A stretch of DNA of 62,743 nucleotides, counting the filler, from Asterionella formosa (lineage: Eukaryota), in NCBI GenBank assembly GCA_002256025.1. It is 15 parts of 15 records of this genome, joined end to end, with 100 filler letters (N's around TTAATTAATTAA, not from the genome) between each part and the next. Parts side by side here need not be neighbours in the genome. Positions count along the whole stretch, not along the records: positions 1 to 21,979 come from NKIB01002896.1; 14 more parts are not named here. One strand, 5' to 3'. This document shows positions 5,949-61,405 of this stretch, piece after piece (the stretch's first letter is position 1; every line of letters starts with the position of its first letter). Position numbers and translations under genes: made by a program. The notes below the pieces were generated by a model that saw only the letters and a program-made list of their open reading frames with translations, ran no database searches and was not told where the DNA came from.

Positions 5949-6111
5949 GTTTGCGATTGGCACACTGCTATAGAGCACTATAAATGAATTTTATAGAGTG
6001 TAATGTTCCTGTCTATGAAACCCTATGCATATTGATTCATTGGGGTGATGTTTATGGTCAGGTCATGTGATGGATTATTGTTGTGAAGGATCACTTCACT
6101 GGCTTGTGCTA

Positions 6112-6858
6112 TTTAATGATGAGAGCAGCTTTTCCCTCTATTGATGGAAACAAAGATGCTGGCAAGTTCAACAGTGAATACAAGAAAACATCCCAAATGC
6201 GGAAATGAGCGATGTGAAAAAATTTCGTAATCAGAATCATTCTATAACAATGTGGAAAGTCTCTTACATTTTCATATCTCCTTCTATGCTGAATCTCAAT
6301 TGTAGATGCAGTATGTGAGGCTTAAAAATGTCAAGGGGAACAAGTAGATTGTGTTTGTTTATGATTTGATTGGCTAGATTGTAATGCTGGTCAACACAAC
6401 AGATCATGTACTATGTGCTCTGTGTGCTGAGCCATTCTGATTTCATGTGATTTCTTCTCCATAAACTCTTAATTGAGTGATTATTAATGTAAGGTGCCCT
6501 GCACATGATGATTACTCAAAGATATAGTGATCACTTGACCAACAAGCAATTGAAGATGTTATTGCAGACAATCATTCCACTCATCATCACTAGTATTTGG
6601 TCGTTATTGCAAAAATCGAAGTTAGGACTCCTGATGAAGATGATGATGAGCCAAAGTACATTACTTGAGCTGGTACATTATTCTACCAAGAAATTTAAAT
6701 ACGGGAACCTAATAGAAATAATACATATAGTAATTAACTATACGTAGTCAAAAGGGTTACTATTTAATTTACGATGGCATTTATCAGAATTAATAGATGA
6801 TATCAAAAAATTATGATCAGATGATCATAGGAATATGATGATTTTTATTTGCAGACAA
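6112..6858 (-). mobile_element. Terminal fragment of DNA transposon family B
   Basis: Reverse complement matches 18030..18830; terminus reads TA|TTGTCTGCAAATAAAAA (CCG decayed to TTG). Confidence 0.8.
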
Positions 6859-6860
6859 TA

Positions 6861-7464
6861 GCAGCGCCAATCTTGTGCCACACTTGTGCATTTTGGATTT
6901 GTCGGCTCACTAGCATGGCGGCATAACATGGTGGTAAGTAGATGATCTTTTGTACAGTAGTGAGGTCGGTGTATTGACCGTAAAGGAGGTTCCCAGCAGC
7001 ATTGGCTATTGGGCCCATGAACTCCCCATTATCGTCAGAGTGCTTCTCCCAATTTACTAGGGCTTCATCTATGGTTGGGAGTGTAGGAGCGTACACCAAA
7101 CCGGCCACAGCAAATAACTCAGGATCGATGTGTACCAAAGGTATCTGGTTGGCGGTGATGTCTCCATTGATTCGGGGTAGCGGAAAATACAGTGCACACA
7201 AGTGATGTTTACCAGGTCATTTACGCGAAGCGGGACAGCGAAAGCTTGATGCATGGTTTCGCTGCCACTGACTACCTTGCTTGCCAATTGTTTGATGGTG
7301 AGTGCCTCCGGAACCAGCGCGGTAGTGATCTCATAGATGCGCCGGTAATTGCCATCAAGAAAATCGAAATCGTGGTCTTGGAAGCGCTTGGCGCAATCGC
7401 CAGTGATTGTCATTTCAAGCTTTGGTAAATAGTAAAACAGAAGACCGTGTCTGGATTGTGACAT
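6861..7464 (-). mobile_element. Degenerate ORF remnant, probably retroelement ORF1/gag-like, interrupted by family B
   Basis: Broken ORFs 7069..7464 and 6845..7201 with protein-like composition; cut exactly at the family B terminus; family identity is only an impression. Confidence 0.3.
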
Positions 7465-7754
7465 GTCACGATAGTTTGAACCATTGTAAATGATTGTAAA
7501 AGTCGACTGTGAAGGAGAAGTGCAGTGGCGCAGAATTGAAGCAATCGAGAGGGGTAAGTAAAGCTTTTTCGGACCCCCTGTTTTGGTGTATTAATGCAAT
7601 GTTATCCTTCCATAGGCTCCTGAGCTTGCTTTGGTACTCAGCACTGCTAGAGTCAATCTTCCGTTTTAACAAGGTTGCTTTCGGAGTCAGCGGTTTTGAT
7701 GAAATAATGATTTTTTTATACTTTTCAACTGCTGGAGCAAGGTTGGGGTGTTTT

Positions 7755-8024
7755 GTGATAGGGATTGCTGAAGGCAATCCCAGGGCTGGAAAACCGAGGG
7801 GCAATTGGCGTCTGTTGTCTTGCCAAAATGCGAACATATGAAATACACAAAATATTTTTAATGATGGGCAATATCGGACCTTTGGCAATTTTCGAGGTGA
7901 AGATAGGAAATATACAAAATATATTTTATATGATGGGCAATAGTAGGCTAAAATTGACATTTATGCTAAATTTGTGGGCAGTAGGTAAGCGAATGACTCG
8001 ACGATAGCTAGAGCGGGAATTGCC
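7755..8024 (-). mobile_element. End of TIR element family C (GGCAATT termini)
   Basis: About 250 bp inverted copy of 8144..8395; ends CGATAGCTAGAGCGGGAATTGCC. Confidence 0.7.
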
Positions 8025-8143
8025 TCAACAATACCCTTCTAGCGCCGGGGGCGCCACTCGTACGGTCAACCTACTCGCGCCACCCAGCCTCGAACACATG
8101 TATACTCGTAGGCAAGAGACCACCTCGGGCGTGTATTGCCTGC

Positions 8144-10065
8144 AGCAATTCACAAACTAGCTATTGTCGCGCCATTTGCTTACCTTCTTCCCACTCATGG
8201 AGTGTAAATGTCAATTTTAGCTCGCTATAGCCCATCATGTAAAATATATTTCGTACATTTCCTATCTTTACATCGAAATTTGCAATGGGTCCGATATTGC
8301 CCATCATTAAAATATATTTTGTATATTTCCTATATTCGCATTTTGGCATTACAATTTGTTGCAATTGCCCCTCGGTTATCCAGCCCTGTGATTGCCGAAA
8401 TTGGCAAGGGGTCTACTTAAGGAAACAATTTTATAGACTCTACAGATTTTAATATTTTATATCTAGAACTCACCTCGTTTTTGTTCGTCTCCTGAAAAGT
8501 GGACTCCGCCAATTCACCTTTCACCATGCCGATTGTCGTCCATCACGACCGGTTTGAAGCGAAATCAGTTCACTGATGACGCCAGTAGCAATTCATTGTC
8601 TAACGGATGCGGTTGGTTGTTGTATTGCTTGTCTTCTCGAGGGATTCATGTTGTCGCATCGTCCATATTTCGTCGGATGAACGATGATATCGATACGTCT
8701 GGTGTTGGTGGCAAGTTTTTGCTCCGGTCATGTATGTAATGATGCTGGATACTCGACCGGTAGTCACCTAGTCTACATACGTAGTACGTGGTACTAAAAA
8801 AACCATGCATGGTCTAACCTAAACTTTAAGACTTACTTTGAACACGTTATAATATTATCTCTGTAGACTCGGTATTGTTTTTACGAGACCAGAATGTTAA
8901 ATTTGATCGTTCACATATTGATTGATTTTACGTACCGTATGCCCGATTTCGTCCTCACAATTATAATTCTCACTCTATCCTGCCTGCCGTTGCTCAATTC
9001 GGGCTTGCAACAGGAACTTTCGACTTTCTCATGAGCCCATTGTCTGCTGTGTGTTACGCTTGTTAGAGCGGATATGTGAGTACAATAGTGAAACACTGAA
9101 TGTGATCGTAGATACTAATTGTCGAAGTTCCGATTTGATTTCTTCCATGGTCCATTTTGATCGCTTCGATCGTTGTTTGTCGTTCCACCCTGTTGTTTTG
9201 TTTCGATAGTATATATCTATATAAGAACAAGTGTTTTTCCCGATGACTACTCTTTGACGACATATTGTTGTTGATCGTATTTGTTGATTTGTATAGTCGT
9301 TTAGCTACCATGATGTCAATATTGCCGCCAAGCAATGCTTTTCTTGTTCTAACTCACTTTGCTACATTTCTACTACGATTTCGTTTCACAAGCTACATAA
9401 ATACTCATCTAGAGAGAGTCAATAGTGCTGGAGCAGCATGGCGATCACGCTTGCTCAGAATGGAATGATCAGGGTTGCTTGTTTGGTGCTGGGCGGAGGA
9501 ATGACTGTGGCGGAAATACTGCTATGGTGTCAGGCTACTACAGCGATGCGCATGGTTGCAGAAACCAGGCCATTTACGCTACATAATGATGCAGGTCTAA
9601 ATTGGGTTCAGCTTTTTTTCTTCTTCTTTCGGTCTTTGATTGTGTGGTGATGGAAAGTCAAGCAATGTTGCCTATGTAAGTACTAGTACAATGATTCACA
9701 ATGCATGCGTCTCCATTGAAACTCCTATTTTTCACTTCATTTCTAACCCAAAACATTTTTTCTATTTCTTATTTGATGCAACTTATTACATCGCATTTCA
9801 TACTTTGGTTGCTCCAAACATTATGTTCAATTTTCATTGATGTTGCATGTTGTTACAATCGTTCTCGTGTGTTTTATGCTTGTTGTACCATCCGATGCAT
9901 ATTACCATTATTCTGACTGTCATGCTTAAAATCGGCAATTTTTATGCCAAAAAATTCGATGTGCCACATATTGCCCTTACATAAAAATTACTTAAGAAAT
10001 TACTTACAGCTAAAATAACTTAGAAGTACCCAAATGACAAGACGATAGCTGGAGCGGGAATTGCT
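8144..10065 (+). mobile_element. Non-autonomous TIR element family C, about 1.9 kb
   Basis: Left AGCAATTCACAAACTAGCTATTGTC and right GACGATAGCTGGAGCGGGAATTGCT form imperfect TIRs; ends shared with 25139..27393 and 57450..57613; no clear TSD. Confidence 0.7.
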
Positions 10066-11208
10066 GCCGTAGTTGCGACGTCACTCACAGTAAATTGTAT
10101 CAGTACCCCAGATACCAGGTGAGCGATCTCGCTCAACTAGCAGACACACCTATAGAGTTCGGTCTACATAGATATATCAGAACTCTATCAGGAGAGAACT
10201 CGACTAAAACCTATTTGAATACTTTAGTGTCAACCAAGGAGATTGGTTCACACACAAGGATTAACAAATAAGCTCATATATTCAACAAATACTACTACTT
10301 CTAGTTAGATACTTCACTTTGAATTCAAAAAGAGTCAAATTAGAATTAACAATATTGATGTATTCTCAAGTCCCAGTCGTGGTTCCATTGACCCAGGGTT
10401 TCAACCTACTAAACATCATGAATAGCACCTTTCATACATTCATACCAGTTCGACATCTTGAGTCTTTCAAGCAAGCAAGATGAGATTGATGGAAGCTCCG
10501 CAGAAGCTTTGTTGAGTGCAGTGAGTTAATTCCATGACATTGCTTGCCTAACCTCCAGCAAGAAATACCTTTTTCCTACTCCAACGGTGCCTTTACAGAA
10601 ATCGCCTTGTACAACTTCTAGTTACCGGTAGGTACTTCACCAGGTACCTAGTACCTGGTACTGTTTGCATAATTAATAGCGACCGGTAATATTTTGCTGT
10701 TGCTCCGCCAACTGTCTACGTGGTACTTCTGATACAGTATCTTATTATGTTGGTGCCAGATATCTAGAAACTACGGGAACAAATACATACATACCTGTAC
10801 CGGGGTACCTGGTACTGGTACCAGTTGCATCCTACTGCTTGCATCGAACATAGTACCTGGTAATTAATAAGCAGTAAGTACATGTGCACATTTGCTTTTC
10901 TGTTCGCCTGACGACTCGAAGAAAGCCGTTGATTTTAATTTTTCTTGATTTCCTGTTTACCGTATAGTAGCTATTCATAGAGTATAATCCGTACCTTGTA
11001 CTACAAGGTACCAGTACGCTGATATCTATGACGCTCTTGTGTGTACATTATGCATTTATTTTATATGTGGAAGCCGCAGTCAACAATAACTTCATGCATA
11101 GAGTGAGCAAAATCCCGGCTCACAAAGAAAGTCCGCATCCACAATCTCACTATTGATCCATCAACCTTTTCCTGTCATCTCTCCGTCCTTCTCCCATCCA
11201 AGGTCAAC

Positions 11209-12506: not shown

Positions 12507-14432
12507 TTAAACTGTCGTAAGAAGCATATTGCGCTCCAAGCGCAATTGGTTGGTAACGACAGCAAGTACAACATGCAGAGCCAAATCTGAATCTTTCGCA
12601 ACAGTCATTTTCATTTTGTGAACTTGCATGGTGTTATCCCAAATCCAATATCCCACAAGTGGTTCCAAGGGTGAATCTTTCAAAGCAGCAGATGACGAGC
12701 TGCTCCGCAAATAATTGGTTGAATTATCACATGCCGGAGACACTTCATCATTCAGGAGCACTGCATTGCCGCCTTTGGATTCTTCCATTCCAGGCTCATA
12801 TACAGTTGATGGCGTGGGAAATTCACCACATAACTCCGAAGACAGGACATTCGATTCCACTAAATTCATTTCCGAAGTTGGTTCGTCAACCACACTCAGG
12901 ATCTCATTCGGTGAAGGACCTTCTACATTAACACCAAACTGGTGGTTCATGGATACCTTCTTTTCATCTCCGCTGTCGTCAGCCAAGCCCTTATCATCAT
13001 CGTTTAAAGATTTCCGAAGTATTTCAGGGTGGTCGTTGTTTCGGATAACACCCTCTCCATAAACATTGGCAGCGGCCGACGAAGATGAATGGGTGTTTGG
13101 AGTTACTGCAATCTGAGCTTCCAATACTTTAATTGACTTCGTTCTGATCCAATTGCTAAATTGTTTCATACGTGGAAAAGACGAGATCTCCGCTTGGGCT
13201 TTTGGGGAGAGCACTCTCTTGCCCTGTTTTTGCGAATCAATGGAAACAGTCGTTTGAGTTGCCCTATCGGTTGGAGGAGTTTCTTTTCTGGCAGCGGCGA
13301 GGTCTGCTGCTTCCAACTGCTTGGCTTCCTCCGAGCTGATTAACATGGTTTGATGTTGTCCCATAAAACTATTGACTTCCTCGCACTTGAGAATAGGATC
13401 GTGAAGCATAAGGTATCCCTCTAGCGGATTTGGAGCTGGCTGGTCCATACCTGCAGACTTCTTCGCCCATTCCTTCCATTGTTTCATCACAAGAATGTGC
13501 GATTGCAGGGCCGCTTCCGTCAACGAATTTTCTGTCTCTGATTTTTCTTCGAAGGATACAAGATGATAGGAGCGATTCTTTTGGTATTGTTTGTCATCTT
13601 TCGTTTCGGGAGAAAACAATGCTTCATTACTGGCCGGTAAGGAATAGTCGTGCTCGCGTAGAGTTTCGCCTTCCTGCGCCGCTGGGGAAATTTCCAACCC
13701 TTTGAAGGAATTTTCCTGCTCAGTGAAGTGCTCGTTTCTAAATCCAGAATTACTTTCCTGTTTGTCTTCGCTATCATTGTCGCATTGAATATTCATAGAT
13801 TGTTGCATGAACGGCTGTGTGGCATTGTCAATACTGCTTGTTCCGATGGAAGTTCGCTCCATTTCAGCTTGGAAAGCTTTAATTTTTCCATATTCTATAC
13901 CGGTAAGACTCTGGGACGAACTGGAACCAATCAAAATATTGCTGTGTCCAGCGTCTTCCTTGACAATGGGCGGTGGTCCATATCGATTTACAATTGCATA
14001 GTAGCGTGACCATGATACAGTAATGCAAGCCTGTTTATACAAGCAGGGGGCGCTTTCACCTCGAAGATCCCTCAACTTCATGGTTGCGTACATATCCGGA
14101 AACTGGCCAGAATAGGCCGGCTGACCGTAACGATAAATTATCCAGTATCTCCTAGAAAGGTCAACTTGAACGCGAAGCAGATAATTACCCATGCCTTTAC
14201 CAAGTACATCAAACCAAGCCAATGTTCCTTCGATGCATTGAGTCGTATACACAAGATTACACTCTTCATCGATAACGTCGAAGTCTCTCTGGTTGATGCC
14301 TTGTTTAATGACAGTGTAGAGGCCGTGCTTCGAAGTGGGAGGGCTTCCATCCACCGTTTCTTCTGCAGAGAGTACCTTTCCTGTCGCTGTCGTCCAATCT
14401 GTTTCCTCGTAACGAGACGAACCTCCTCCCAT
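12507..14432 (-). CDS. Uncharacterised protein, possible Tubby-C/LURP-one-like fold split by low-complexity insertions
   Basis: Long ORF, first ATG at 14432 (MGGGSS); beta-rich N-terminal part and C-terminal MTVAKDSDLALHVVLAVV resembling the LURP/Tubby C-terminal helix. Confidence 0.55.
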   Translation of the reverse strand: MGGGSSRYEETDWTTATGKVLSAEETVDGSPPTSKHGLYTVIKQGINQRDFDVIDEECNLVYTTQCIEGTLAWFDVLGKGMGNYLLRVQVDLSRRYWIIYRYGQPAYSGQFPDMYATMKLRDLRGESAPCLYKQACITVSWSRYYAIVNRYGPPPIVKEDAGHSNILIGSSSSQSLTGIEYGKIKAFQAEMERTSIGTSSIDNATQPFMQQSMNIQCDNDSEDKQESNSGFRNEHFTEQENSFKGLEISPAAQEGETLREHDYSLPASNEALFSPETKDDKQYQKNRSYHLVSFEEKSETENSLTEAALQSHILVMKQWKEWAKKSAGMDQPAPNPLEGYLMLHDPILKCEEVNSFMGQHQTMLISSEEAKQLEAADLAAARKETPPTDRATQTTVSIDSQKQGKRVLSPKAQAEISSFPRMKQFSNWIRTKSIKVLEAQIAVTPNTHSSSSAAANVYGEGVIRNNDHPEILRKSLNDDDKGLADDSGDEKKVSMNHQFGVNVEGPSPNEILSVVDEPTSEMNLVESNVLSSELCGEFPTPSTVYEPGMEESKGGNAVLLNDEVSPACDNSTNYLRSSSSSAALKDSPLEPLVGYWIWDNTMQVHKMKMTVAKDSDLALHVVLAVVTNQLRLERNMLLTTV

Positions 14433-14901
14433 CTTGATCGATTGATATAACCGTCTGACGCTTGGGGTGGAATTTGGATTTTCGGGTCGTGTGGTGAGCA
14501 ATGCTGATCAATGCTGAGGATCCGTTTCATCGAGATTTGTTCTGTCATCAGTGAGTGGTTTCGTTTACTTAATACAAGGTGATAGGCATACAGGTACTGT
14601 ACGTTGCTCGTACTCCGGCACCAGAGAACGACCACCGGACACTGTGATATGTTAATGCCGGTAGTGTTTTAAATACAAAAAAACTCGTATTTTATGTAAG
14701 CAAATTGCTGACAATGTACTCGGTACGGAATGCCAGGTACCTGGCACCAGGAACCTCGGGTACCTGCAAGTTGCGGTAATTTTGCTGAAATTAAAGATTT
14801 AGCTATCTTTATCCCAGATTGACCGCAACTTGCTGGTACCCGCCGCCCTGTCCATAAATCGTCCAGCAAAAGGTACATATGGGCTGATCTATGCATCGTT
14901 G

Positions 14902-15149
14902 TGTCAAGAATATAGCATCAATGGCTATAATGAGTCACAGGGAATGTGGACTCGACTAAAGTCCAATGAGTCAAATGGTGCGTTCCCATGTCAAGAAGCT
15001 TGCTAAGGAGATTGATGTCTTAGATCAATCAGAAGAAGGTTTACATCAACGAAAAGGGAACACGAAGAACAGGTTCTCTGAGTGTGATGAATGGGATTGA
15101 AACTTAGTTTTAGTTTAAGCTTATAATTAAGAAACAGTGAGAATTGACA
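14902..15149 (+). repeat. Possible 5' LTR of the downstream copia element
   Basis: TGTCAA...TTGACA inverted ends just upstream of gag; no second LTR and no clear PBS seen. Confidence 0.3.
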
Positions 15150-15327
15150 GAGTAAGGTCAACAGCGAAAACTAGCACAAAGGCTAGCAGCAGAAAGAAGA
15201 TAACAACACTACCGGTAGTGATATAACAGGTAAGTCCAATGTAAGAGGAACGCGTCAGATGGGAAGGAGTACAAGACCTTTTAACATGCTTTAAAGCGTA
15301 CCTTTGAAGGCCACAGGCTATTCAGGA

Positions 15328-16233
15328 ATGATGGGAAGTGACGAAGACACGTCAGTGAGGTTGCTGACATTCGATGGGCAAGATGCTAAATGGCACATGT
15401 GGAAAGCGAAGTTTCTCGAATACGCGTGCTACAAGAACTTTCAAGGAATACTTAACGGTGACAAACTACCAAGAGGAGAGAAAGACCTAAAGGGCAATAC
15501 GATCGTGTTGTCGGATGCTGATGAGAGACGCATCCGAAGGAGCAACACAGTTGCTTACGCAAGTCTGATAATGGCATTCCAGAGTGGGCCATTTGGACAC
15601 GTAAATATTGCAAGAAGTTCCGAGTTTCCTAACGGCAATGCTAAAGAAGCATGGGACAAGCTCATTTCTACGTATGAGTCAGGCAACATGATGGCGAATG
15701 TCATTGCCTTGTCCCACCAATGGACGGAGTGCACTCTAGTGGAAAACGAGAACCCCGACAGCTGGTATGTGGAGTTGGATCGTATCCGGGAATAATTGGG
15801 CAATACAAACTCCGCCGTTTCGGATGGTGCCTATGTGGCACACATGATCAACAACCTACCTGAAAGCTACAAGAGTTTGGTAGAAGGAAGATTCGGCCTT
15901 GCGCGCAACACGCTATCGGTCGAAGAGATAAAGACAGACATCCGGGACTACTACGATCTATATGTCCGGGATGACGTCAAAACGAATAACAAGAACAAGA
16001 GTGAACAGGCCTTCTACACGAAAGGGAAGTTCAAAGGTGACTGTCATAAGTGTGGCAAGTATGGCCACAAGGCAAGGGCAATAGTGCCGACAAGAAGGAG
16101 CTCACTCCTGAACAGAAAGAAAAGAGGAAAACGATCAAGTGTTTCAAATGCCAACGAATGGGACACTACGCAAGTGAGTGCACTAGTAACAGTGCATCTA
16201 AAAATAATAAATGCGAAGAGAACAACACGAGTA
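15328..16233 (+). mobile_element. Ty1/copia gag pseudogene, truncated by family A insertion
   Basis: FDGQDAKWHMWK gag start, NPDSWY, NNLPESY; in-frame TAA 15793; knuckles CHKCGKYGHK and (after frameshift) CFKCQRMGHYASEC; ends at TA|CCG junction. Confidence 0.85.
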
Positions 16234-18029
16234 CCGCCTGTAAATAAAAACCATCATGAACATAGGATCCAGGGTATCGTACGCTAAGTGGCACAGGATT
16301 TTTGCATATATGATACTTTTTCGATCAAAAATATGATCAATGTATAATATAATTATGATCATGCAGTAAACTTTTACCGAGCTTGAAGTATGATGATACT
16401 ATCATAGTTATAATACCATTGCATCATATAATTAGTCAAACATGGTCATATGATGTGTATACTTTTGTCATGCATCTATCTTAGCATGATTGTAATTCTC
16501 ATCAATATCATTGTCTAAAATAGGATAAAATGGATCGAAAATTAGAACTATATTTAAGAATGGTTCTATGTTTTTATATCTTGAGAGGCTACAGAATGTT
16601 CTACAATGCTCTCTTCGCAATGATTGGTGCTTCAGCTGCTCTCACTTCCACATTCCCCCCAATCCAATTCTGAAGGTTGTTGTAGTAGTGCTGGTTGCCT
16701 TGCCGTTGTTCCCCTGCTTGCTTTGTTCCATTTACTCCTGAGGGTTCTGAGTTTGCATTCACGCACTATTGAATCCGTTTCGTTGTTCCAATCAGCCATA
16801 ATAACAAAGAGAAGCAATTCATTGTTAGCTGTTCATGTTTTGCTTACACAACAGCATGCATTTCGCTTCTATCTGCCTTCGCTTACCACAAATTGAGGAA
16901 TTAACTGATGCATATTTCTGTAAAAAAATTTGTTATTTGAAGATTGAACGAGAAGCAAAGTATCGATCAATAAATGGGCTCCAACACTGCTGTTTGTTTC
17001 AACTTACAAATACTGTTTGTCTACCATTATGCTGAAAGAAGCAACACATATGTGTCAGTTTTTCTAACAGTTGTGCATTGATCCAAAGATGGCTGATAGG
17101 CAGCACTTACCAATTTCTTTTGTCCACATTGATGGTTGGCCAGCCACCAAATCGAAAAGGATCTATTGAATCACTGAAAGGGGACGAGTCATTCTTCCGT
17201 GCATGCATTTCGCTTCTATCTGCCTTCACTTACCACAAATTGAGGAAGTAACTGATACATATTTCTGTAAAAGAATTTGTTATTTGAAGATTGAACGAGA
17301 AGCAAATTATCGATCAATAAATGGGCTCCAACACTGCTGTTTGTTTCAACTTACAAATTCTGTTTGTCTACCATTATCCTGAAAGAAGCAACACATATGT
17401 GTCAGTTTTTCTAACAGTTGTAGATTGATCCAAAGATGGCTGATAGCACTTACCGATTTCTTTTGTCCACATTGATGGTTGGCCAGCCACCAAATCGAAA
17501 AGGATCTATTGAATCACTGAAAGGGGACGAGTCATTCCGTATTTGTAATCCCAGCAACTGATCATCTTGGCATTTGCTCTTGACAAACCGTGATGCTATG
17601 CACAGCTTGTTGATTCCGCCCTTCTCCATCATATTCACTCATTCGTAGCCGCATGGTGTATCATCGTGCTGTATTGCTGTCACTTCAGTTATTCGCATCA
17701 TGTGTTGCTTGAGATCCATCATTTCAGGAAGTGGATGCAGCATGACAAGCAAGGAACATGAAAGGCATTTGCTCTTGACTTCTTACCATCAATTGATTCC
17801 GCCCTTCTCTTCTAAGCCGCAAGTATCATTGTGCTGTATTATCAATTTTGTTTTCCGCGTCATCATGTGTGATGATCCTTCATTTCAGGAGCAAATTGTA
17901 TGCATGACAAGGAACAGGAAAACATGATTTCAAATGTTTCAGCCATGAATAGATATACATAAAGATTTGTAAGAAGTTTTAATGTATATATAGTTGAACA
18001 TTTGCACATCTTTAAATACATTCATTATA
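16234..18029 (+). mobile_element. DNA transposon family A (left part), nested in copia gag
   Basis: Begins TA|CCGCCTGTAAATAAAAA; 16760..18029 matches reverse complement of 58991..59866. Confidence 0.8.
16854..17540 (+). repeat. Tandem duplication of about 345 bp inside family A
   Basis: Units start GCATGCATTTCGCTTCTATC at 16854 and 17201; single unit in the 59-kb copy. Confidence 0.9.
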
Positions 18030-19932
18030 CCGTCTGCAAATAAAAACTATCATATTTCCATGATGCATCATAGGATTGTGATCATCTGATCATACCTTTT
18101 CATTATATCATCTAATAATTTTGATAAATGCCTTTGTAATTTAAATAGTAACCCTTTTGACTACATGTATTTAATTATTATATGTATTGTTTCTATTTGA
18201 TTCCTGTATTCGAATTTCTTGGTAGGATAATGTACCAGCTCAAGTAATGTAATTTTGCTCGTGATTTCCATCCGTCATCACTCCGATTTTTGCAACAACA
18301 ACGAAATACTAGCGATGACAAGCGGAATGAAGGTTTGCGATAACGTCTTCAATTTGTTGGTCAAGTGATCTTTATATCTTTGAGTAATCGTCATGTGCAG
18401 TGAACCTTTGTTCATAATCATTCAATTAAGAGTTTACAGGAGAGAAGAAACCATTCGAACTCGTAATGTTTCCGCACACAGCGCACAGAGTATATCCGTT
18501 TCGTCCACTTCGCTCAGCATGACAATCTCGCCAATCAACCCGTAAACAAACACATTCTACCGGTACTTGTTCTCGTTGACATTTTCAATTCTCACATGAT
18601 ACTGCATCTACTATTGAGATTCAGCATAGAAGGAGATACGAAAATGTGCGTAACAGACTACTGTCCACATAGCTATAGTTACTGAATGATTCTGATTAGA
18701 ACGCATTTCATTTTCATATCGCTCGCTCGTTTCTGCATTTGGTATACTGTACTTGAATTAATTATTGAACTTGTCCGCATCTTTGATACCATCAAGAGAG
18801 CTAAAGCAAGTGGCTCCTTTCATTGTTGTTTTCTTGTAGGAAAAATTTGATATCTGATATCTGCATCATCATTTGCTTGTTGGAATTGTCCGTTGCCTCA
18901 AACTTGCTTGGCGTGTGCGTGCACACACTGTCGACTTGTTTTCAATGGTATGTTGTTCTTGTATTCACTGTTGAACTTGTCCGCATCATTGTTACCATCA
19001 ATAGAGCGACACGTGGCTCTCTTCATTGTCGTTTGCTCCTGGAAAAGTCGGTGTCCGTGTCATCCTCATCAATAGAGAGACAAGTTCTTTCGTTGGAAAA
19101 ATCGGTACCGTTTCATCATTTGCTCGTTCGAACCACTGTCCGTTGCCTCAAACCTGATTAGCGTTTGAGTACCGGTATGTGCACTGTCGACTTTAGTACA
19201 TTACAGGCGGAGTGACTTCTTCGCTACTAAATTCTGTAGCACGATGCAGAATACAGTTGCTTCCCAATCATCTCATCATGATTGATCAGATGATACTGTG
19301 ATATCAAGATAAGGTTACATCGATGCATACATCACTAAAGTATGATACGTAATATTGAATAAAGTACATCACATAGCTATGATACATTGATCATAAAACT
19401 ATGATGATTTTACAAAATGTCTATGATATAATTTTGATCAAAATATGATTATGTTAAAATAATACAATGATAATAAAATACGATAAAATATGTACACAAG
19501 TGTTACCAAGACATCATAGAAAATAAATCAAGCAATCATAAAGTATGTTAATTAATATATATGTTTGTTGTTTAATGTATACAGTTAAAGTCAACAGTTA
19601 ATATGATAGTATTATACAGTGGATAGGATCTAAGTATACGGATGCGTTGATATGTACATTACTAAAATATGATTTGTGATATGGATTGATGCATATCACA
19701 TACCGGTAGCTATCCTCAACAACCAGCCATCACGTTCATTGTCGTGTCGTCTTTCCTTGTTTTAGCTATATACCGGTATATGCCAGCATGTGTATTGTGT
19801 AAACACTACGCTGGCGGAACATGCATATTACACTGTGCTCTGTTCAACAATTACTACACTCGGTACCATCACACCAGTTCCACCTCCACAGGCGCCGCAA
19901 CATAGTCTTCTGGCCCTTTGACAACTTTCCAA

Positions 19933-21509
19933 ATGGCATTTCACGGATTTCATGGAAAGGATCAGTCAAACAAGAAACGAGACTTACTTCCATTGTTTAC
20001 ACTACACGACTTTATGTTTTCGGAAAAGAAGATGAAGAAAGTTATGAAATCAATCGAAGATTCCCTTGAATACACTCAAAGATCAAATGAATTTGAACAG
20101 ATTCATAATACTCCAGAAAAAATAATGAGGTATGCATGCCGATACAATAGTGGCTGAGATTGAAAAGAAGGAAAGATTGCTTTCGAAGAGCCGAGGAAAC
20201 CCAAACAGTTGGTCTTCGTGGATGAAGACTCTATTTGTACAGAGTCACAGTTCCACCATCCATTATCGTATTTTGCTTATTCACCCAAAATCGCTGATAA
20301 TGAAGAAGAAATCAGTGATTCTCATTCATTTGATGAACAAATTCATGCGATGAATGAAAATATCGGCGGAAATGTGGCAGACAACACTTAAGAAGTAGAA
20401 ATGGTTGAAAAGTTGCAAATCAAGAAGCATATCTCACTATCCGTCCAGAACATCAACATGAACATCATAAAAACAGAGAAATTATTGCTTTTCTAAAAGA
20501 ACCGATATTCAAGAAAAAATCTGAGCTAGATCAAGACCTCGAATTCAAGAAGATCAATGCAGACAGAGATGTGATGCTGGCTAAGGCAGTTAATGCTCTG
20601 AATAGGGAACGAAGTCAGAAACACAAAATTGAATCTTTTTCCAAATCATACATGGAAGAAAAAGAATTTCTTTGTAAAATCATTGAAAACAATCCAGAAG
20701 GCAGCTACTTTTGTGAAAAGTCGGCATGTGAAATGTGTAGAGTTATTATGCCAAAGCAAACGGCATTTTCCTTGAGTTTGCCGAAATCGCATGGACAACT
20801 AAAATTGTGGAAAGAGTTGTACACTCGTACTCCGCAAGATATATGCAATTACGCCTCTGTTTTTTATGGAGTCAAAGGTATCAAAAAATCATGTTCAGAT
20901 TTTAAAGATCTTGCATATTGGGACCTTGAACTAATCACCTCTATGATCCATTATATAATTCATGAACTTCATCCAAGTGATGTAAAGTTTATATTTGATC
21001 TTGATGAGAACCCAGAAAAGGGTAATAACAATCCATATATATACCAAGGTGATTGTCTTCCACTTCATCACGAAAGTAACTATGTGCAAATTGTGTATTG
21101 CAAAAAATCAGATGAGGAGGAAAACAATCATTTTGTGCATTATCTTTTTGCTATAAATGATGGATTATGTCAAGTCCGTGATCCAGGAAAAGATGCAAGT
21201 TTGGATGAACATTACGATCAAGTATTTCACCTTGCCCGTAAGTACTGCATCATCCCCGGATGCAGAAAAGAATTGGAATTGTTATGCACCGACACAGGAT
21301 ATCTTCCACAAGAATTCCATATACCTGAAGAAATTGGTTTCTCGGAATCTTTCTATACTGGCACCAAAGCACCATTGCAGATCAGTATGGCCACTGAACA
21401 TGATTGCACTAATAGTAATAGTAGTATAGAGCAGAATCAATGTTTTCCTATCATCTATGATATGGCTTGCATTTGTAGAAGTCTCACACTAACTATAATT
21501 ATTATGTAA
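19933..21509 (+). pseudogene. Family B ORF: acidic N-terminus plus putative Ulp1/SENP-like cysteine protease domain; frameshifts and stops in 5' half
   Basis: Fragments 19918..20157, 20209..20391, 20571..21509 align to intact 1038..1649 in the 5' part; W-DLELITSMI, NNHFVHY, QVRDP, EQNQC order resembles the C48 His-Asp-Gln-Cys core. Confidence 0.45.
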
Positions 21510-21979: not shown

Positions 21980-22079
21980 NNNNNNNNNNNNNNNNNNNNN
22001 NNNNNNNNNNNNNNNNNNNNNNNTTAATTAATTAANNNNNNNNNNNNNNNNNNNNNNNNNNNNNNNNNNNNNNNNNNNN
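21980..22079. other. Artificial contig linker N-TTAATTAATTAA-N (100 bp); 13 more start at 44022, 45464, 46905, 48346, 49787, 51228, 52669, 54110, 55550, 56989, 58428, 59867, 61306
   Basis: Identical spacer with stops in all six frames; contigs decrease in length (21979, 21942, then 1342 down to 1338 bp). Confidence 0.98.
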
Positions 22080-22983
22080 GTTGATTTCCCGCTATGTGTA
22101 TTGCTAATATGCACATATCTGGTACCAGGTACCCTGGTACCTGATGCCGGTTGACTTCAAAGTATCATCGCAGTGGTGTGTACTAGGTGAGCTACCAGTA
22201 CCAGGTACCTGGTACCTGGTCCTGGTACGGAGTACCCCCTGGTACCTGGGAAGGACTGGTAAAACACTTACCTATCTATCTACTTAGGAAAAGTTTGAGT
22301 TAGCAAATTTCTCGATTGCTTGATTACGGACCTTCACCATTTGGAACTGTCCCTCCAAAGCCATGGTTTCTACGTAGCTTTATGACGGTAGTTAATGCAA
22401 TCAGACATTCTTTTCTTACTCAGGGAAGTCATTCACTTTGTTACCTCATCCTCAGTCCTCAACTGAATTCGTTTTAGGATCCTCTGCAATCATGTAGCGA
22501 CAGCAGAAAATACAAAGCGCTCGCAAATCGCTTCTTCTACAAATGATGAAATCTAGTAAAAGATAACTTACCGGTACCTGAACATCGTCATAAATCCAGA
22601 AACTATTATTGTTTCTACTGAGTATTGTAACTAAATTTTAATCGAACACTGAAGAACTCCAAGTTCAATGATCATAATTGTACAAATGACGTCCAGCTCA
22701 ATTAAGATGTTTGTCGCATGCAATACAACTATACAGAACACGGTATCTGGTACTCATTGCCAAGGGCCACAACCACTTGACAACTTGGTAGTGCAATCGC
22801 TTGTTTATGCGGTGATGTCAAGAACGTGGCCACAAGGCCGATGCAAACATCGAATTCGTTGCATTTAATGCGAAATGATTACTTTTATATTTGAACTATT
22901 AGCACATTTTAATGCGCAGTATACCGAGATTGACTTTTGTACCGGAGAATTTTGCAACTATCATGCTCAAGCCAATGCCTGTG

Positions 22984-25138: not shown

Positions 25139-27393
25139 GGCAATTCACAAACTAACTATTGGCGCGCTTTTTGCCACTACATTGCCCTTTCAGTTTACAT
25201 TGAAAACCTATTTTAGATAGTTTGTATGTTGGATACAAACTAGCCAATTGCCCATCAAATAAAACATATTTTGTATATTTCATATGTACAGTTTTTGGAT
25301 AACTCAATCCTGCAATTGGCTGCCCATCATATAAAACATATTTTGTAAATTTCATATGCTCCGTTTTTCGACTGCCAAACTACCTTCAATATATTCAACA
25401 GCCCCTAGATTTTAATGCCGAAATCGACTGCCGTTTATTTAAGGGAATTTGATTACTGATATCTATAGCCCCTCAATTGCCTGCCGTTTACTTAAGGAAA
25501 ATCGGCTGCCGAAATTGGACGAGAGTAGGAGGAGCTACATGAAAGGCATGAAATGATGGTTTTCTTTTAAGTGTCGACGTCAATTCCACTATTTACATCC
25601 CTGCTATCTTCCAGCATGCTCCAATGTATACAAAATCTGGTCATTGATGTCTCAAGTACTGACTCTTCATCAAATTGATCTGGCTGGTTGTTGGATAATT
25701 CGATTTCTTATGGTATTCATATAATTGCATCGTGCTTGCTTCGTCACAGTGGCGCCAAAATTTCGGTTCCCCTTTCTGTTGATTTCCGATAGCCTTTCCG
25801 GTCAACTCCTTCGCTATATTTGATATGTAGTGATAGATAAATTAATGATTGTTCAAAAGCGACATCAATCAGTAGTTGAGTATCAAAACTCAAAACGTAA
25901 TGGTAGGTCAAAGTTAGGCTTCCATCTCGCCATTGAACCGGTATTTTCGTCAGATATGATCAGCCATTAAATTTTAACTATATTTTTGTAGAATGTTTTC
26001 TACGTGTTCTACATTATCTCAAATCAGATCTCGGCAGCAAGTTTTAGTGCTCACGTGTTGGCTTTTTTCCGCTGCCCTACAAAAGCATGTTTCATTGCTT
26101 TCTAATCACAATATTACTTATGTTACTTCTGCATAATCTTCTACAATGACAAACGAAAAGTCGTCAATCTCAATGAGCTATCGCAAACTCCGCAAAGCAG
26201 CTGGAACATGATGGAGCTGGTGTTCTGCATTAACTCGTATTCAACAAGGAAGAGAGGACAGGTATGTGTTTGTTGATTGTTGTTGTCATATTTGAGTTCC
26301 CGCCATGGTCGAGTATACTAATTATGACACATATTTCTTCCTCTTCAGAACGTTGATAAAGGCTATTGTCATGTTACTCCTCCACTTCCTGATGATGCAA
26401 CAAATCAGTATCCACTGGTCAAACCAGCCTGTCCAATGAGGTGAAATATGTTGCCAGTTGATTGTTGTTTTCACGAGGTATAATGATGAACACACACTAA
26501 CATTATTCTTTTCCTGTTTCCCAAAGCTAGCAAGCCACTTTTATCGAAACTCGCACGAAGATTGCAAAGTCTTCAGGACGCAAACAATGTGGGCAACATA
26601 TTTCGCCAGCACCAACAACATATCACTCCATTGCTCCCTATCAACCTAATCAAAACTGTCCTCCTCAATTTTCTAATTCACAAACGTCTACATCAGCCAG
26701 TAAATTTTCGACGCATCCTGCTCCTCCTGCCGGATACTGCCAGAATTCTGCACCGCCAGCACCAAGAAACCTCCGCTTTCAAGCTGTTGCTCCTCCAACA
26801 CCTCCGCAACCACAAGTCCAAATCAATTTATAAACCAGCATTGCCTCTTAATCCATTCAGGCATCGGTTTCTGCTCCGCCAGGCCCGATCTGAAAATTTT
26901 TGAAATTTCGTTGCAACGACAAAAAAGTGTGAGTTGACAATTGTTAATGAAAATGCGTTGACAAATTTTCACACGATTTTTCCGCTGACCCATTTTCTTT
27001 CTCACTTTTTATTCTACTCCCTGCTTGTCATTTTCACGTGTTACCTTTCGATTTCCGTTTCATACTTTGGTTGCTTAACAACATCGTGTCGAATTTTCGA
27101 TGCTTGTTACAATCATTCTTGTGTGACTATTTTTCATGCTTATACCGGTACCGGTACACCGGTATTCGGTGGTCCATGCATTTTTGATTTGTCTAAATAA
27201 ACTTTTTCCCATGAAAATTCTACTCCTGACGTTGCTCGATGGTCCCTGCTGCTCAAACCTAAAATTGATTGCCGAAAAATCCAATGTGCCCCATATTGCC
27301 CCTAAATAAAAAACTATTTAAAGAAACCAAAAATTACTTAGACACCCACAGTTCTCATCGAAAAGCAAGACGATAGCTAGGGTGGGGATTGCC
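25139..27393 (+). mobile_element. TIR element family C, divergent copy, about 2.25 kb
   Basis: GGCAATTCACAAACTAACTATTGGC ... GACGATAGCTAGGGTGGGGATTGCC; subterminal blocks (TTGCCCATCA, ATGTGCCCCATATTGCCC) shared with 8144..10065. Confidence 0.7.
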
Positions 27394-33920: not shown

Positions 33921-35824
33921 ATTTGGCAGAATCAGCAAAACAGATTGAACTCAATATTTTAGGATAAATCAGATCAAAGCTAAAAATTTATTGGAACAAC
34001 AAGCCGGTTGGGTTGGTTTTTTAAATGGATATCAAGAAGAGACACATGTATCAATTCTTTTTACCACCAAAATTATTTGCCCTTTTAGTCGCATCTAGTT
34101 TGAAGCACAACATGTTGCATGTGATATGCTCATGATACATTCTGGAGCTTAAGAAATAGAAAATGAATAATTTTTTAAACAATATTTTTTTATTTTATAC
34201 CGTCAGTATTGAACCTGACATAAAGAAACTGATGGTTTATAATCCCCAATGTCTTGCACTTGGGCACTCAAGCTAGATGACTAGAAAGGTTCACAATGAC
34301 ATACAGGGCTCACACCATCACCTTTCCAAGTCCAGCTCAACCGAACGATCGAATATAGAATAAATAATCCTTAGCTCACTCGTTTTAATCATTTTACTCT
34401 GATTGTAAACTCTGAACTTGTTTAGGATTGATTGCTTAGATAGTATAGGGCAGATGTTTTCACTTTCTTGAGTTGCTGTTGCATTTGTTGCAGCAAAAGC
34501 AAATTTAGGAAAATTGCCTCTGAGCACGGTATCTGCCATCATTCATGCAGTATCATCCCAGGAGCATCCATTTCAACTTGTATTTGTTCACGAGAACTTA
34601 CAGATTCTGTTTTGCCTATTAACCATCGTTCGTTCAATTGTCAGCACTCATGATTTTCCTACGCATCATCTTGCAGAATTGTCTAGGCCTTTCTTTAGAA
34701 TTTGTTGGATTGTCAGTTCTTAGCGGGAAAGCCCACGGATTTTCGGGTTAGTGCATTGGTCATAAACTTTTTCTCAAGATAAATGGCCAAGGAAAGGAGA
34801 ACACAACTCCCTTTTGACGGGGATGCAAACAATTTGAACCTAGTTTGGCGCATCCCTCTCTTCCAACGCATTTTTGTTCAACACAGACGCAGCTTGGCCA
34901 TCAGAGTGACAAGGAATCGAAAATTTGCGGTTAGTTTTTTGATTATTGGAAGCAACTGGCAATTTGGCTGACACAACACAGCACACAGGCAGGCAGCTGA
35001 TACCATTGATGAATCAGCAAAAGATGATCATCATTATTGAAATCTAGCTAAATGTGAGACTCTAGTGGTTGCCTTACTTGTAAGGTTTCCCTTATCATGT
35101 CTGCCGACTTCTTCCTTTTTATGGCCTTTTTGATGACGAGGTCATTGACAGGCACAAACCTTGTTGGATTTCCACCAAGTGAAAAGACAATTCGGCATAA
35201 AATACTACAAAACTTCTTGTAGTAATAAATTATGTAAGAATACTGGCCATGTGTTTGGTTATCATCTTTGTTTTCCCCAGGCTCCTCTACACTAAACTCA
35301 TAGCTTTTAGTATAGGCTATATGCCATCATCTCTGTACAACATCATAGAAAAAAGTACATTTTTGTAAGCATGGGAGTGTGTCAGTTCATTTACTCTCCT
35401 GGTCAACATTGTTGCTATGTTGATGTTTAAGTTTAATTTGATTAATGATGTTTTACCAGTAGTAGCTAGTATAATCCCTCAACACACATCAGTACACCAA
35501 AAGTACACTGGTAAAGGTCGTGCCAGTCGTACTCATCTTGACTCACCAGGTATACCTGCCTGGTAGTGTACCCTGGTACCTGGTAGAATTTCTTTGACAA
35601 TACCATCGTATACTGCAGGTTTCTATTGCTCCGCCCATCGGTAGAATATTGTTATACCAAAATGTGGCAAAACACCCACACGTGCTACAAGTTAAGCAGG
35701 ATGGAAACAGTGGACAATACCCGGGGAGTTCAAAGAAAAGGGCAACATACAATTACTTATGCATCACGCTAGCAGAGACTGAACAGAATGGAGGTACCAG
35801 GTTCCACACCACGGGGTGTATGTG

Positions 35825-36249: not shown

Positions 36250-37482
36250 TACTATGTGCCACCAAAATTCTCCGTTTTTCTGAAGAGCGGTTTGGACTGG
36301 TGCTATTGATTGTTGATCCTTGTCCAGAGCAGTTGTTGGAGCAGCAATTGATCAGGCTGATTACTGATGGTTGGCAATGGAGCAGAGAAGAAAAATTGAC
36401 TTGCCTAGCATGTCGAATCCTTTTGGGAACATCGTTTTCGATGAGGCCATTCCCACTGCTGCTTTAGCTGGCACTGATTCCTCTGCAAGTAATACGACCC
36501 CTTCGCTCAGCTAGCGTTCGCTCCTTGCGGACGTCACAAGGGGGTTGGTTGATGACCCAGGTAAGAAACTTATCCGATGGAATTTGTTGATGTCACACTG
36601 ATTTGTCAGGGAGTTGTAGTGGTTGCAGGTGGTAGGGACAGTAGCTCTCAACGATTTGAACCATTGGGAGTGCTAACTGTAAAGTGGCGGGACATAAATT
36701 TAAAAAAATTTGGTCTTAGGACATACTGTCTACTTGAGGGCTACTACAATGTTAGCATATGTCGAGCCTTGTTATCTGAATATTGAAGAAGCTCAGATGT
36801 TGGAAGACGAGTTAACATCGGTCCTTGGGTTGGCATTGACGCCACATGAATGGTCATATGTTTTTCGGCCTTAAGAAAATGAAACGTCAGCAATGAACTG
36901 AGGTTGTTTGGCATTCGATTAAACGAAGAAGAAGAGGGATATGGTAGAATTTCACCAATAATGTACTGGTAAAAATTTTAGAACAGTACGGTGTTTGTAA
37001 TATAGAATGACAGAATATACTGGTATACTGATACTGCGTCTGGAGCAGTATCAGTACTGTATCCAATGCTTCAGTATACTGCGTTCCAGTAGACTTTTGC
37101 CGACCTCGTATATAGCATTAACAAATAGCTGGAATACAATAATACGCGGTTATTTTTTCTGAAGACATCAAAACTACCGGTATTTGGGAGTGTTGCGCCA
37201 GATGTACAAAGGGAGGTTCTTTTATGGTACCAGGTACCAGGTCCCAGTTTAGCCGGTACCGCTACCGGTACCTGGTAACCTGTAGGTAGCTAAGGACCAG
37301 TCTGATATCGTACGTACATTCTGGTAAATATGACAGGTTTAGCTACAATGCTGCTATATTATGTATGTTCACAGCAATTTTTATGTTTGCTACCGGTACT
37401 TGTTTGTTCAATGGAACTCGACTTTAGAATAACAAACCATACCTAATAAGGTTGTTGATATTGGGTACGGTTTGGTGACAGC

Positions 37483-40391: not shown

Positions 40392-41130
40392 CTCCCTCCG
40401 TCCGACAATAAACAGTTGCATCGATAATCCAAATTTCTCCGGGGCCATCTTGACTCCTACGATTTTCTCCGGCTAAATTGCCCTTTTGAGTGGCTCGCTC
40501 TAAGCTACAACATGTTGCGGTCATTTTGCTTTAATATACAATTTAATAGCGGATAAAGATAGCTAAATATTTAGCTGGAGGACAATGACGACAACTTACA
40601 GATCAATGTACCGGTACGGTATTATATTTATATGTATCCATAAAGAGACTTACAGAGAGAGTAAGGACAAGTACTGGTACCGGTATGCCGGTAGTTTGTG
40701 TAGAAGGGCATAACATTTTAGGTGGCTTTTACCATTTAATTAGGATTTCTAACGTGTTACATACTGTACCACAGGGCACATTTTCCCATAAAACGCCATT
40801 CTCACAGCAGCAACATTCCTTGGTCTTGCAACAGCACTTAAAAAATGACTTGTTAATACTGGACTTGGCTATTGTGATAAATATTTCTTCTGGAGATATC
40901 TTGTCCTGAGCTAGATTTATTATTGTCTGTGAAAGCCTTTGAAACAAAAAGCATGTCTCATTGATGTGGACATCATGATAGAAGTATCACAGAAACCAAA
41001 CTGAATAGGGCCAAAATACTCATGATTTTTTGCCATGTCAGGATTCAACTGCAAATGATTGATAGCATAAGGCACATAATCTAAAACGGTGTTTCTTGGC
41101 GTCAGAGATGGCTTCATCATCCCTTCTATC
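40392..41130 (-). mobile_element. Degenerate plant-type mariner (DD39D-like) element with Stowaway-like terminus
   Basis: TA|CTCCCTCCGTCC at 40390; minus strand KPSLTPRN and DVHINETCF resemble KPxLTxxN and VHIDEKWF of Soymar-type transposases; far boundary unknown. Confidence 0.55.
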
Positions 41131-43976: not shown

Positions 43977-45690
43977 GATAAATTATGAATTGTGATTGGG
44001 TTTTTTAATCTGGTGCGGCCTNNNNNNNNNNNNNNNNNNNNNNNNNNNNNNNNNNNNNNNNNNNNTTAATTAATTAANNNNNNNNNNNNNNNNNNNNNNN
44101 NNNNNNNNNNNNNNNNNNNNNATCAAGCCCTTCTTCTAATTCATTACAAATAGGCAATGCCTGCGCTAACAATTCCGAACAAAAACGAAGGAGAATAGGA
44201 GAGGAGATCTGCCCACAACAAGCAACAGCAAACAATATCAGCAGAAGGCAAGAAAACATTGCACTTGCTTACCATGTATACAGTTGTCCCCTATGCACCA
44301 GAGGAATCCTTTCAACAATGTAAATAACAAATGATTGATAGCCTGCCTGACACAGGATAGCCATCCTGACACAGGCAGAGCACGACGCATTTCATTATTC
44401 CCAAGGTTCAACCCTGCCCTGCCAAAAACAGATTGATTGTCTGTAGAAAAAGAAAAAGGTTCGCAGAGTATGTTCATGACTGACCACTTTTCCAATTCCA
44501 AACGGCACAAGTAAGAGGAAGAACGAAATGGAGGTAAGGGAAATACAACAGCAATCAAACATATTTCCAAACACAAGACGAAGAAAACGAGCGACGGTGC
44601 AGAGCAACAACAAAAAGAACAACAGCAATGTGACAAAAGACCTGTTTCCATTTCCCAAAATATTAACTGCTTACCATAATTTCTCGAACTTTCAGATGCA
44701 TCCTTTCTGTGATGACACCAAGCAAGGAGAAACAAAAAATGCCTGCCTGTTTCTTCCAGAGGAACCGGCCCACAACAGAGTCCTTCTTGTTATCTGGAAG
44801 CGAAGAACAAGATTCACAGAGTCAGATGATGGCTGGTTTTTAACAAACAAGACCTTTTTACATTTCATATCAAACAATGCATGTTCAAGTTCAAACGCAG
44901 GGCGAGGAACACCAAGGAAGAGAAGGTTTTACAGCCACAGTAACCATAACGAAAGAACAATAGAATAAGAACAGGAAAAATGAAAGCAGAAACAGCAGGG
45001 ACAGCGGTAACGACAACGAGAACACAACCATGATAGCAGAAAAGACGACAAAAACGACAACAATAACAATAACAATGACAATAATTTCATTTTACCATGA
45101 ATGTGATATTTTGTTCCTTTCATTCCAGCAGCTGCTTTTCGTTAAGAAAACTGGCGCGGACGGTCCTCCTCGCCAACATTCATTTTGTACTAAATTTTTG
45201 TACATTGTACTTCAGAAAAAGCTGGCGCAGTCTATGCTTAGTCAGTATTGATCAAATTCGTCATCAGGATGCGTAAAATTTTCGGTGCTTGCTGTGGACT
45301 GATGACCAGTGCTGTAGCAACCTAAATTCCAATTCATTTCTTTCTCAACCAATTTGATGCCGATTTCTATCTAATATATTATTTGATGTACCCGAAATCA
45401 AAGGCTTCTTGTCGAATGTCGATATGCTCAGAACGAACGTATATTGTCCAAAGGAGGCATCAGNNNNNNNNNNNNNNNNNNNNNNNNNNNNNNNNNNNNN
45501 NNNNNNNTTAATTAATTAANNNNNNNNNNNNNNNNNNNNNNNNNNNNNNNNNNNNNNNNNNNNAATCCTACCATTCTAAATTTAGAACTTGCTGACATTT
45601 ACTAAATTGCTGACTATGACAACTAGAACTTGCTGACTATGACTACTAGAACTTGCAAATGAGAATAGATCTTCTTCTGAATGACCCTTA

Positions 45691-45870: not shown

Positions 45871-46100
45871 TATTAGACTAGTTATATAAATGAAATATTA
45901 TGATTCCCATTTGGGAATTAGTTAGTTTTTCCCGCAATTTGAGCGATGTTGCTGTCTTGTCATTGAACGACCTGGTACCTGGTACCGGTACAATGGTAGT
46001 ACACACCGGTAAATGTACCAACAATCCTTTGCTGGCCTCATCCTGTGGTGCGATCCACAAAAAATCTTTTCCTTGACACGAAATATACATGTATGGCATC

Positions 46101-61305: not shown

Positions 61306-61405
61306 NNNNNNNNNNNNNNNNNNNNNNNNNNNNNNNNNNNNNNNNNNNNTTAATTAATTAANNNNNNNNNNNNNNNNNNNNNNNNNNNNNNNNNNNNNNN
61401 NNNNN

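Follow-up and report, generated by a model that had tools for sequence, protein, structure and literature searches.

Transposons of the Tc1/mariner superfamily, including Tc1 and Tc3 of nematodes, mariner of Drosophila, Sleeping Beauty, and ZB of zebrafish, leave footprints made up of two copies of TA with a few bases of the element tips between them, a product of staggered cuts and end joining. We analyzed words of this form in a stretch of 62,743 bases of Asterionella formosa (GCA_002256025.1), hereafter called the window, which contains insertions of the types TA+CCGG+TA (TACCGGTA), TA+CCWGG+TA (W, A or T) and TA+CCAG+TA as well as a family of MITEs (miniature inverted-repeat transposable elements) with CC...GG tips. 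In our judgment these insertions were quite probably left as footprints when elements of a Tc1/mariner-like MITE system that targets TA were excised, the breaks being closed by end joining and the sites hit again in such a way that GGTACC(W) arrays were built. According to published accounts, Tc1/mariner footprints measure 2-4 bp (PMC7913693), excision of Stowaway MITEs and Mariner elements leaves a small duplication with short end sequences (PMC4561436), and the breaks made by DNA transposons carry short 3' overhangs from the element ends (PMC4423477). In rice, a clean duplicated target was recovered after 8 of 94 excisions, with deletions or filler DNA in most (PMC4423477).

The window has the TA duplication, the terminal inverted repeats and the order TA, tip bases, TA that mark Tc1/mariner elements, excision itself being deduced from the sequence. 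Its MITE family resembles Stowaway-like MITEs and plant Mariner-like elements in being short (<500 bp), non-coding and multi-copy, in having inverted ends and in being flanked by duplicated TA, and the inverted-end sequence is one that we take to be unrelated to the plant Stowaway consensus. Judged by sequence features, the insertions work like, and belong with, footprints of the Tc1/mariner/Stowaway type. However, Tc1/mariner footprints are known as single events or from assays, whereas here they form a signal across the k-mer counts, with 46 scars in 61 kb, some of them stacked; moreover, some scars here are five bases long, they lie in the DNA of a diatom-like alga, and no transposase was found in the ORFs of the window or of the metagenome loci. 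Likewise, excision in rice mostly leaves deletions or filler, whereas the scars in the window are stereotyped and dense. The mechanism is a textbook one, and what makes the case of interest is its scale, its stacking and its host. We found no description of such a scar density, of stacking or of diatom footprints in the literature covered, which left subscription journals and supplements outside.

Scar words and the candidate source element

The window is made of 15 contigs (1-21979, 22080-44021 and thirteen pieces of ~1.34 kb) artificially joined by 14 linkers, each consisting of 44 N, TTAATTAATTAA and 44 N, and any comparison spanning a linker is one between unplaced contigs. We identified 21 TACCGGTA sites against 0.30 expected, a count reached by none of 100 dinucleotide shuffles; the expectation is 0.24 under a first-order and 1.13 under a third-order Markov model. 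These 21 sites are spread over six of the 15 contigs. TACCWGGTA occurs 13 times (0.21 expected) and the CCAG/CTGG words TACCAGTA/TACTGGTA 12 times (1.08 expected), so that the enrichment is 86-fold for CCGG, 61-fold for CCWGG and 11-fold for CCAG/CTGG, while three control palindromes of the same composition (TAGGCCTA, TACGCGTA and TAGCGCTA) are absent from the window. The excess of TACCGGTA and TACCWGGTA to be expected from a preliminary description of this DNA is thus borne out. The other words that it had singled out fared less well, since TAGCTA is enriched only 3.1-fold (28 against 9.0-9.5 expected, a count that includes paralogous sites and sites within the MITE) and TACWGTA is not enriched in the window (9 against 5.5). 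Counts for further words are 16 against 6.25 for TACGTA, 2 against 0.04 for TACCCTGGTA and 2 against 1.08 for TACCTGTA/TACAGGTA. The apparent enrichment of TTAATTAA (30 against 0.8) is due to the linkers, which contain this word.

Altogether there are 46 CC-type sites in 61,343 bases, approximately one per 1.3 kb. They occur singly in unrelated contexts or clustered, with TA between short C...G units, and the units mixed within the arrays are CCGG, CCAGG, CCTGG, CCAG and CCCTGG. Only three of the 46 lie inside open reading frames (ORFs) of at least 150 residues, which cover 35.5% of the sequence; the associated p = 5e-6 is generous, as clustering of the sites means that their independence is overstated. 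One TACCGGTA, at 13898, lies in the gene for a 641-residue protein. As a footprint it should have inserted two residues, and this was ruled out, since homologues read L-A-G-M, L-S-G-M or L-A-S-I at the site with equal length. It is a chance-level background occurrence, and the chance expectation of 0.2-1.1 allows one. By eye, TAGCTA lies within 20 bases of CC-type scars in 3 of 28 cases, with about one expected, an association too weak to be used.

The only clean element with CC tips in the window is a MITE flanked by the TA duplication on both sides, and no other TA-flanked inverted-repeat element with such tips was found there. Its 15-base inverted ends match at 14 of 15 positions and begin with CCT and CCA. 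Among the rows listed, 56 contigs of sequencing run X1 match its left part and diverge at 14820 into a longer right half, which indicates that the family is multi-copy and that the window copy is internally deleted. Full copies measure ~96 bp (range, 74 to ~120 bp) with inverted ends of ~24 bases, and some copies hold scars within themselves. In the preliminary description, CCGG had been put down to two families, A and B, whose ends would be CCG...CGG; neither was found in the window, and a CCG tip is not required, since two bases from each CC...GG tip suffice. Two further candidates were rejected as source elements: a foldback at 7773-8396, whose ends are not CC...GG, and the interval 19170-19708, whose apparent ends (TA + CCGGTATGTG ... 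CACATACCGG + TA) are two TACCGGTA scars plus four bases, its paralog being without the left end.

We scanned a metagenome collection once with the inverted-repeat core and obtained 43 loci, namely 26 MITE copies and 17 chance matches; a scan of viral contigs gave one chance match, on the same contig as locus L032. The 26 MITE loci (47,055 bp, partly redundant) contain 28 TACCGGTA, 78 TACCWGGTA and 115 GGTACC, against 1, 0 and 4, respectively, in the 17 loci that were matched by chance (71,680 bp). As the loci were chosen through the MITE, these counts speak for co-occurrence and not for frequency: the scars are present wherever the MITE family is present. Among the 24 non-redundant ends from loci and window, 17 have a CCN tip (CCA 9, CCT 6, CCG 2, the CCG tips being in metagenome relatives only). 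TA stands directly outside nine of these 17 ends, compared with ~6% TA in the window, and GG precedes seven of the nine flanking TAs, which suggests insertion of the element into the TA of a scar already present.

Differences between repeat copies and between related contigs

We checked paralog pairs by gapped self-comparison of the window. The region of the preliminary description (18558-19780) falls entirely within multi-copy repeats, which occupy 1-2000, 6000-10670 and 14675-20000; their summed contig depth is ~1000-fold above that of the adjacent single-copy DNA, and single positions are covered by more than 100 X1 contigs. The comparison with runs X1 and X6 used contigs only, and its best-supported indel and joint rows all come from high-copy repeats. 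At 18558, as had been proposed, TA+CCGG+TA stands exactly where the paralog at 6347 (minus strand) has a single TA. At 18560, 64 X1 contigs among the rows listed continue as the empty form; since the stretch is multi-copy, these are other repeat copies, and the 18558 insertion is specific to the window copy. The gains of GCTA (TA+GC+TA) at 19707, relative to 820 and next to a TACCGGTA that both copies have, and of TAGCTA at 53265, which two of the three tandem copies lack, also agree with the earlier reading. Where polarity could be read, the longer form is the derived one, namely at 18558 (empty in the paralog and in the 64 X1 contigs) and at 53265.

Two other pairs differ, but not in the simple way that had been described. 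At 19170 the paralog near 273 does not have a single TA but reads TAGTA, so that only CCG differs, and the scars of the two copies may be different ones here. One X6 contig has TGAGTACCGGTAC ahead of position 19172, which would be an extra scar unit in another population or repeat copy. At 19763, the TAGCTA absent from 868 is part of a 24-base compound insertion together with TACCGGTA and other bases, instead of a plain TA+GC+TA. The CCAGCA within it (19779-19788) is identical to the six bases with which the MITE end begins and could represent a larger piece left over from an element end, although the match is a hint only. Comparison of the window paralogs gave 68 non-redundant indels; besides these two complex cases, four are simple TA-X-TA, X being GC in two, CCGG in one and A in one, so that the term "pervasive" suits the k-mers but not the share of paralog indels. 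Four-base paralog indels without a TA anchor were seen at 20136, 36026, 17098 and 17448 (ATGC, GCCA, AGGC and CAGA), and these may be ordinary small duplications or the result of a different process.

Between near-identical metagenome loci, 11 of 36 non-redundant indels are TA-X-TA, seven of them with X of the type CC...G(G/C). X is CCGG twice, CCGC, CCTGG twice, CCAGG, CCGGTACCTGG, GC, T, CTC and GAG, of which T, CTC and GAG may be trivial. All three 6-base and three of four 7-base indels are of the TA-X-TA kind. Three contigs from different assemblies, L013, L040 and L025, represent one ribosomal DNA (rDNA) spacer, at the end of which the small-subunit rRNA begins, and they are near-identical apart from indels. 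The differences include TA versus TA+CCGG+TA+CCTGG+TA, GAGAGTATCATC versus GAGAGTACCGGTATCATC (TA versus TACCGGTA) and, between L013 and L025, AAATAAATACCGGTATGC versus AAATACCGGTAAATATGC, in which the scar is at either of two adjacent TAs, suggesting two separate events. Since rDNA is multi-copy, these indels may distinguish rDNA copies rather than strains. The spacer is packed with footprint-like arrays, contains a MITE copy that lies upstream of where the small-subunit rRNA begins, and varies between the contigs mainly through such units.

Proposed formation of the scars and competing explanations

The scars are duplicated TAs enclosing 4-5 bases equal to tip bases, and they are copy- or strain-specific. 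In the mechanism that we propose, insertion would duplicate TA, and a Tc1/mariner-type transposase would then cut with a short 3' stagger, probably of three bases, so that the flanks keep TA-CCA and TGG-TA. End joining without resection would yield CC+GG (2+2) or CCW+GG/CC+WGG: overlapped end bases would give CCWGG, hence at most five bases left, loss of both end bases would give CCGG, and loss of two bases on one side would give CCAG/CTGG. The full 3+3 product (TACCATGGTA), of which the window holds none, would not be formed, and from the rare CCG-tipped elements CCGG could arise via two paired bases. The excess of CCAG/CTGG over CCTG/CAGG (12 versus 2 in the window) fits this scheme, since CCA is the commonest tip. 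The second TA of each scar, now in a GG-TA-CC context, would be hit again and thereby give rise to the stacked GGTACC(W) arrays; such re-use would explain both the arrays and the GG before seven of nine flanking TAs. Within the arrays, slippage probably contributes to changes in length. The core of the footprint explanation put forward in the preliminary description is supported, in that the words are enriched, the insertions are anchored on TA duplications, the longer form is derived where polarity could be read and an element with CC...GG ends exists, whereas families A and B were not found in the window. The TA+GC+TA class appears alike to the CC-type scars in structure, and no element accounting for it was found in the window.

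Several observations weigh against an origin of the scars by MITE excision. One intact and one decayed MITE (the latter with three mismatches to the inverted-repeat pattern) stand against 46 scars in 61 kb, a ratio that would call for numerous excisions or for elements in other parts of the genome, and TA is absent directly outside 8 of the 17 CCN-tipped ends. In a shallow search, neither a filled/footprint pair nor a trio of empty, filled and scarred forms at one site was found among window paralogs or locus pairs. The 26 MITE loci lie on eukaryote-like contigs that were picked through the MITE and are a non-random set with several copies of the same locus, and run X1 is possibly the source sample of the window itself. 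Array units could also vary by replication slippage. Furthermore, no transposase of any kind, DDE/DDD types included, was detected in 169 ORFs of the window (26 + 143) or 41 ORFs of the loci, and the superfamily was accordingly assigned from the TA duplication and from the ends; at five bases, one class of scars is longer than the 2-4 bp given for Tc1/mariner (PMC7913693); and TA+GC+TA cannot be derived from CC...GG tips and requires another source. The last three points would equally suit a TA-targeting system outside Tc1/mariner, such as another superfamily or a domesticated transposase, with the MITE as one substrate among several. We consider this unlikely, since TA duplication, short inverted ends and tip-base scars are the Tc1/mariner/Stowaway signature (PMC4561436; PMC7913693), and since the window contains no other kind of TA-flanked inverted-repeat element with CC...GG tips.

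Slippage or unequal exchange in microsatellite-like GGTACC(W) tracts might also make and spread the units, the link to a transposon being incidental. Like microsatellite and minisatellite arrays, the units are short, tandem and variable in number between alleles; identical 7-base units do stand in tandem (up to four TACCTGG in L013), and some allelic differences are one unit gained or lost within an array (7-base indels). However, the units here are heterogeneous, mixing CCGG, CCAGG, CCTGG and CCAG, are delimited by TA and equal transposon tips, and they also stand singly in unique DNA (18558, and GAGAGTATCATC versus GAGAGTACCGGTATCATC). Moreover, a scar can occupy either of two adjacent TAs in different contigs, and MITE ends adjoin the arrays, whereas slippage is unable to seed units, which makes this explanation decidedly unlikely. 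Selection for functional palindromes, for instance protein-binding sites, could account for TACCGGTA and TACCWGGTA being palindromic, non-coding and often upstream of genes, as before the thioredoxin-like ORF, but it would leave unexplained the TA-anchored insertion polymorphism, the scars in repeats and in the MITE, the heterogeneous stacked arrays and the identity with the element tips, and we regard it as very improbable. An artefact of assembly or sequencing, in the form of linker or adaptor remnants, comes to mind because the window is artificially joined with synthetic linkers, but the motifs are inside contigs, away from the linkers, and recur in many independent metagenome assemblies and in an X6 contig (19172), so that such an origin is extremely improbable. 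Excision footprints of a Tc1/mariner-like MITE system thus remain the reading that we prefer.

Features of the window and possible meaning of the scars

The positions of the scars, arrays and elements are collected in Table 1.

Table 1. Scars, arrays, MITE copies and linkers in the window
Position	Strand	Feature	Remark
10623-10660		Array of TACCGGTA, GGTACC and TACCTGGTA	
10804-10862		Array of two TACCTGGTA and one TACTGGTA	
13898-13905	-	TACCGGTA in the 641-residue gene	Encodes L-T-G-I
14736-14764		Footprint-like array	Abuts the left end of the MITE
14761-14838		MITE: TA, 74 bp, TA	Ends CCTGCAAGTTGCGGT / CCAGCAAGTTGCGGT; right tip ACCGCAACTTGCTGG
18558-18565		TACCGGTA; 6-base insertion (CCGG + second TA) specific to one repeat copy	Paralog 6347
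19170-19177		TACCGGTA where the paralog (~270-276) reads TAGTA	3-base difference (CCG)
19701-19712		TACCGGTA common with paralog 812-819, then extra GCTA in this copy only	From alignment
19763-19788		24-base compound insertion with TAGCTA, TACCGGTA and CCAGCA	Versus paralog 868
21980-22079; 44022-44121		Linkers	12 more places, last 61306-61405
22121-22246		Two stacked arrays; CCAGG, CCTGG, CCAG and CCCTGG units split by TA	TACCAGTACCAGGTACCTGGTACCTGGTCCTGGTACGGAGTACCCCCTGGTACC at 22193
27143-27156		TACCGGTACCGGTA; two putative CCGG footprints with common middle TA	
35569-35585		TACCCTGGTACCTGGTA array	
37175-37398		Three TACCGGTA and two TACCWGGTA	Includes 52-base array 37226-37277; upstream of thioredoxin-like ORF
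40507-40603		Decayed second copy of the MITE family	Departs from the inverted-repeat pattern at 3 positions; TACCGGTA at 40609 is 6 bases away
40609-40685		TACCGGTA and TACTGGTACCGGTA	
45974-45990		GGTACCTGGTACCGGTA array	
49457-49480		TACCTGGTA ... TACCAGGTA pair	
50102-50160		TACCGGTA and GGTACCAGGTACC	
53265-53270		TAGCTA where tandem paralogs 52876 and 53070 have a single TA	One copy with, two without

The window DNA is eukaryotic with few long introns, and it is matched in an "algae metagenome" run and in many freshwater metagenomes; relatives of the 641-residue protein were found in a marine-protist transcriptome set, and the label of one of them ("Thala...") points to a diatom. Its ORFs include an NAD-dependent sugar epimerase, LRR, CRAL/TRIO, thioredoxin-like and ion-channel proteins and pieces of copia-type retroelements, while the ORFs at 1026-1649 and 20409-21509 match no significant Pfam family, the former having a sub-cutoff match to Cas_Csy1. 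The copia-type fragments are at 15295-16287, 54211-55549 and 59969-61303; the latter two contain RVT_2, Pol beta-barrel and zf-CCHC with a weak GAG-pre-integrase match, and the ORFs of the first are without a Pfam match, the one at 15796-16287 showing by eye a CCHC-type zinc-knuckle-like motif. A tandem duplication of ~343-347 bp with 96-99% identity occupies 16854-17537 within the repeat region, with related pieces at 58990-59866. The foldback at 7773-8396 spans 624 bp with inverted arms of 168 nt (83%) and 45 nt (87%), and, among the rows listed, 78 and 54 X1 contigs part from the window at its centre, 8040/8041.

As an extension of the footprint reading, the scars may feed themselves, the TA in GG-TA-CC being preferred by the same family, so that arrays are built and remodelled and the scars become a leading source of short-indel polymorphism in non-coding DNA of a diatom lineage, rDNA spacers included, in the form of a readable history of excision. 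We offer this tentatively, and put its chance at somewhat less than even. If the scars are excision footprints, approximately one per 1.3 kb would point to cut-and-paste activity on a very large scale in the past, and probably still today, in a diatom-like alga, the breaks being repaired by clean end joining, and both the 6-/7-base indel class and the GGTACC(W) arrays would be explained. The scars would then mark hot spots that were hit repeatedly and would provide a simple signature by which excisions could be counted across the whole genome and from strain to strain. They would also point to an active pair of MITE and transposase, a potential genetic tool for diatoms.

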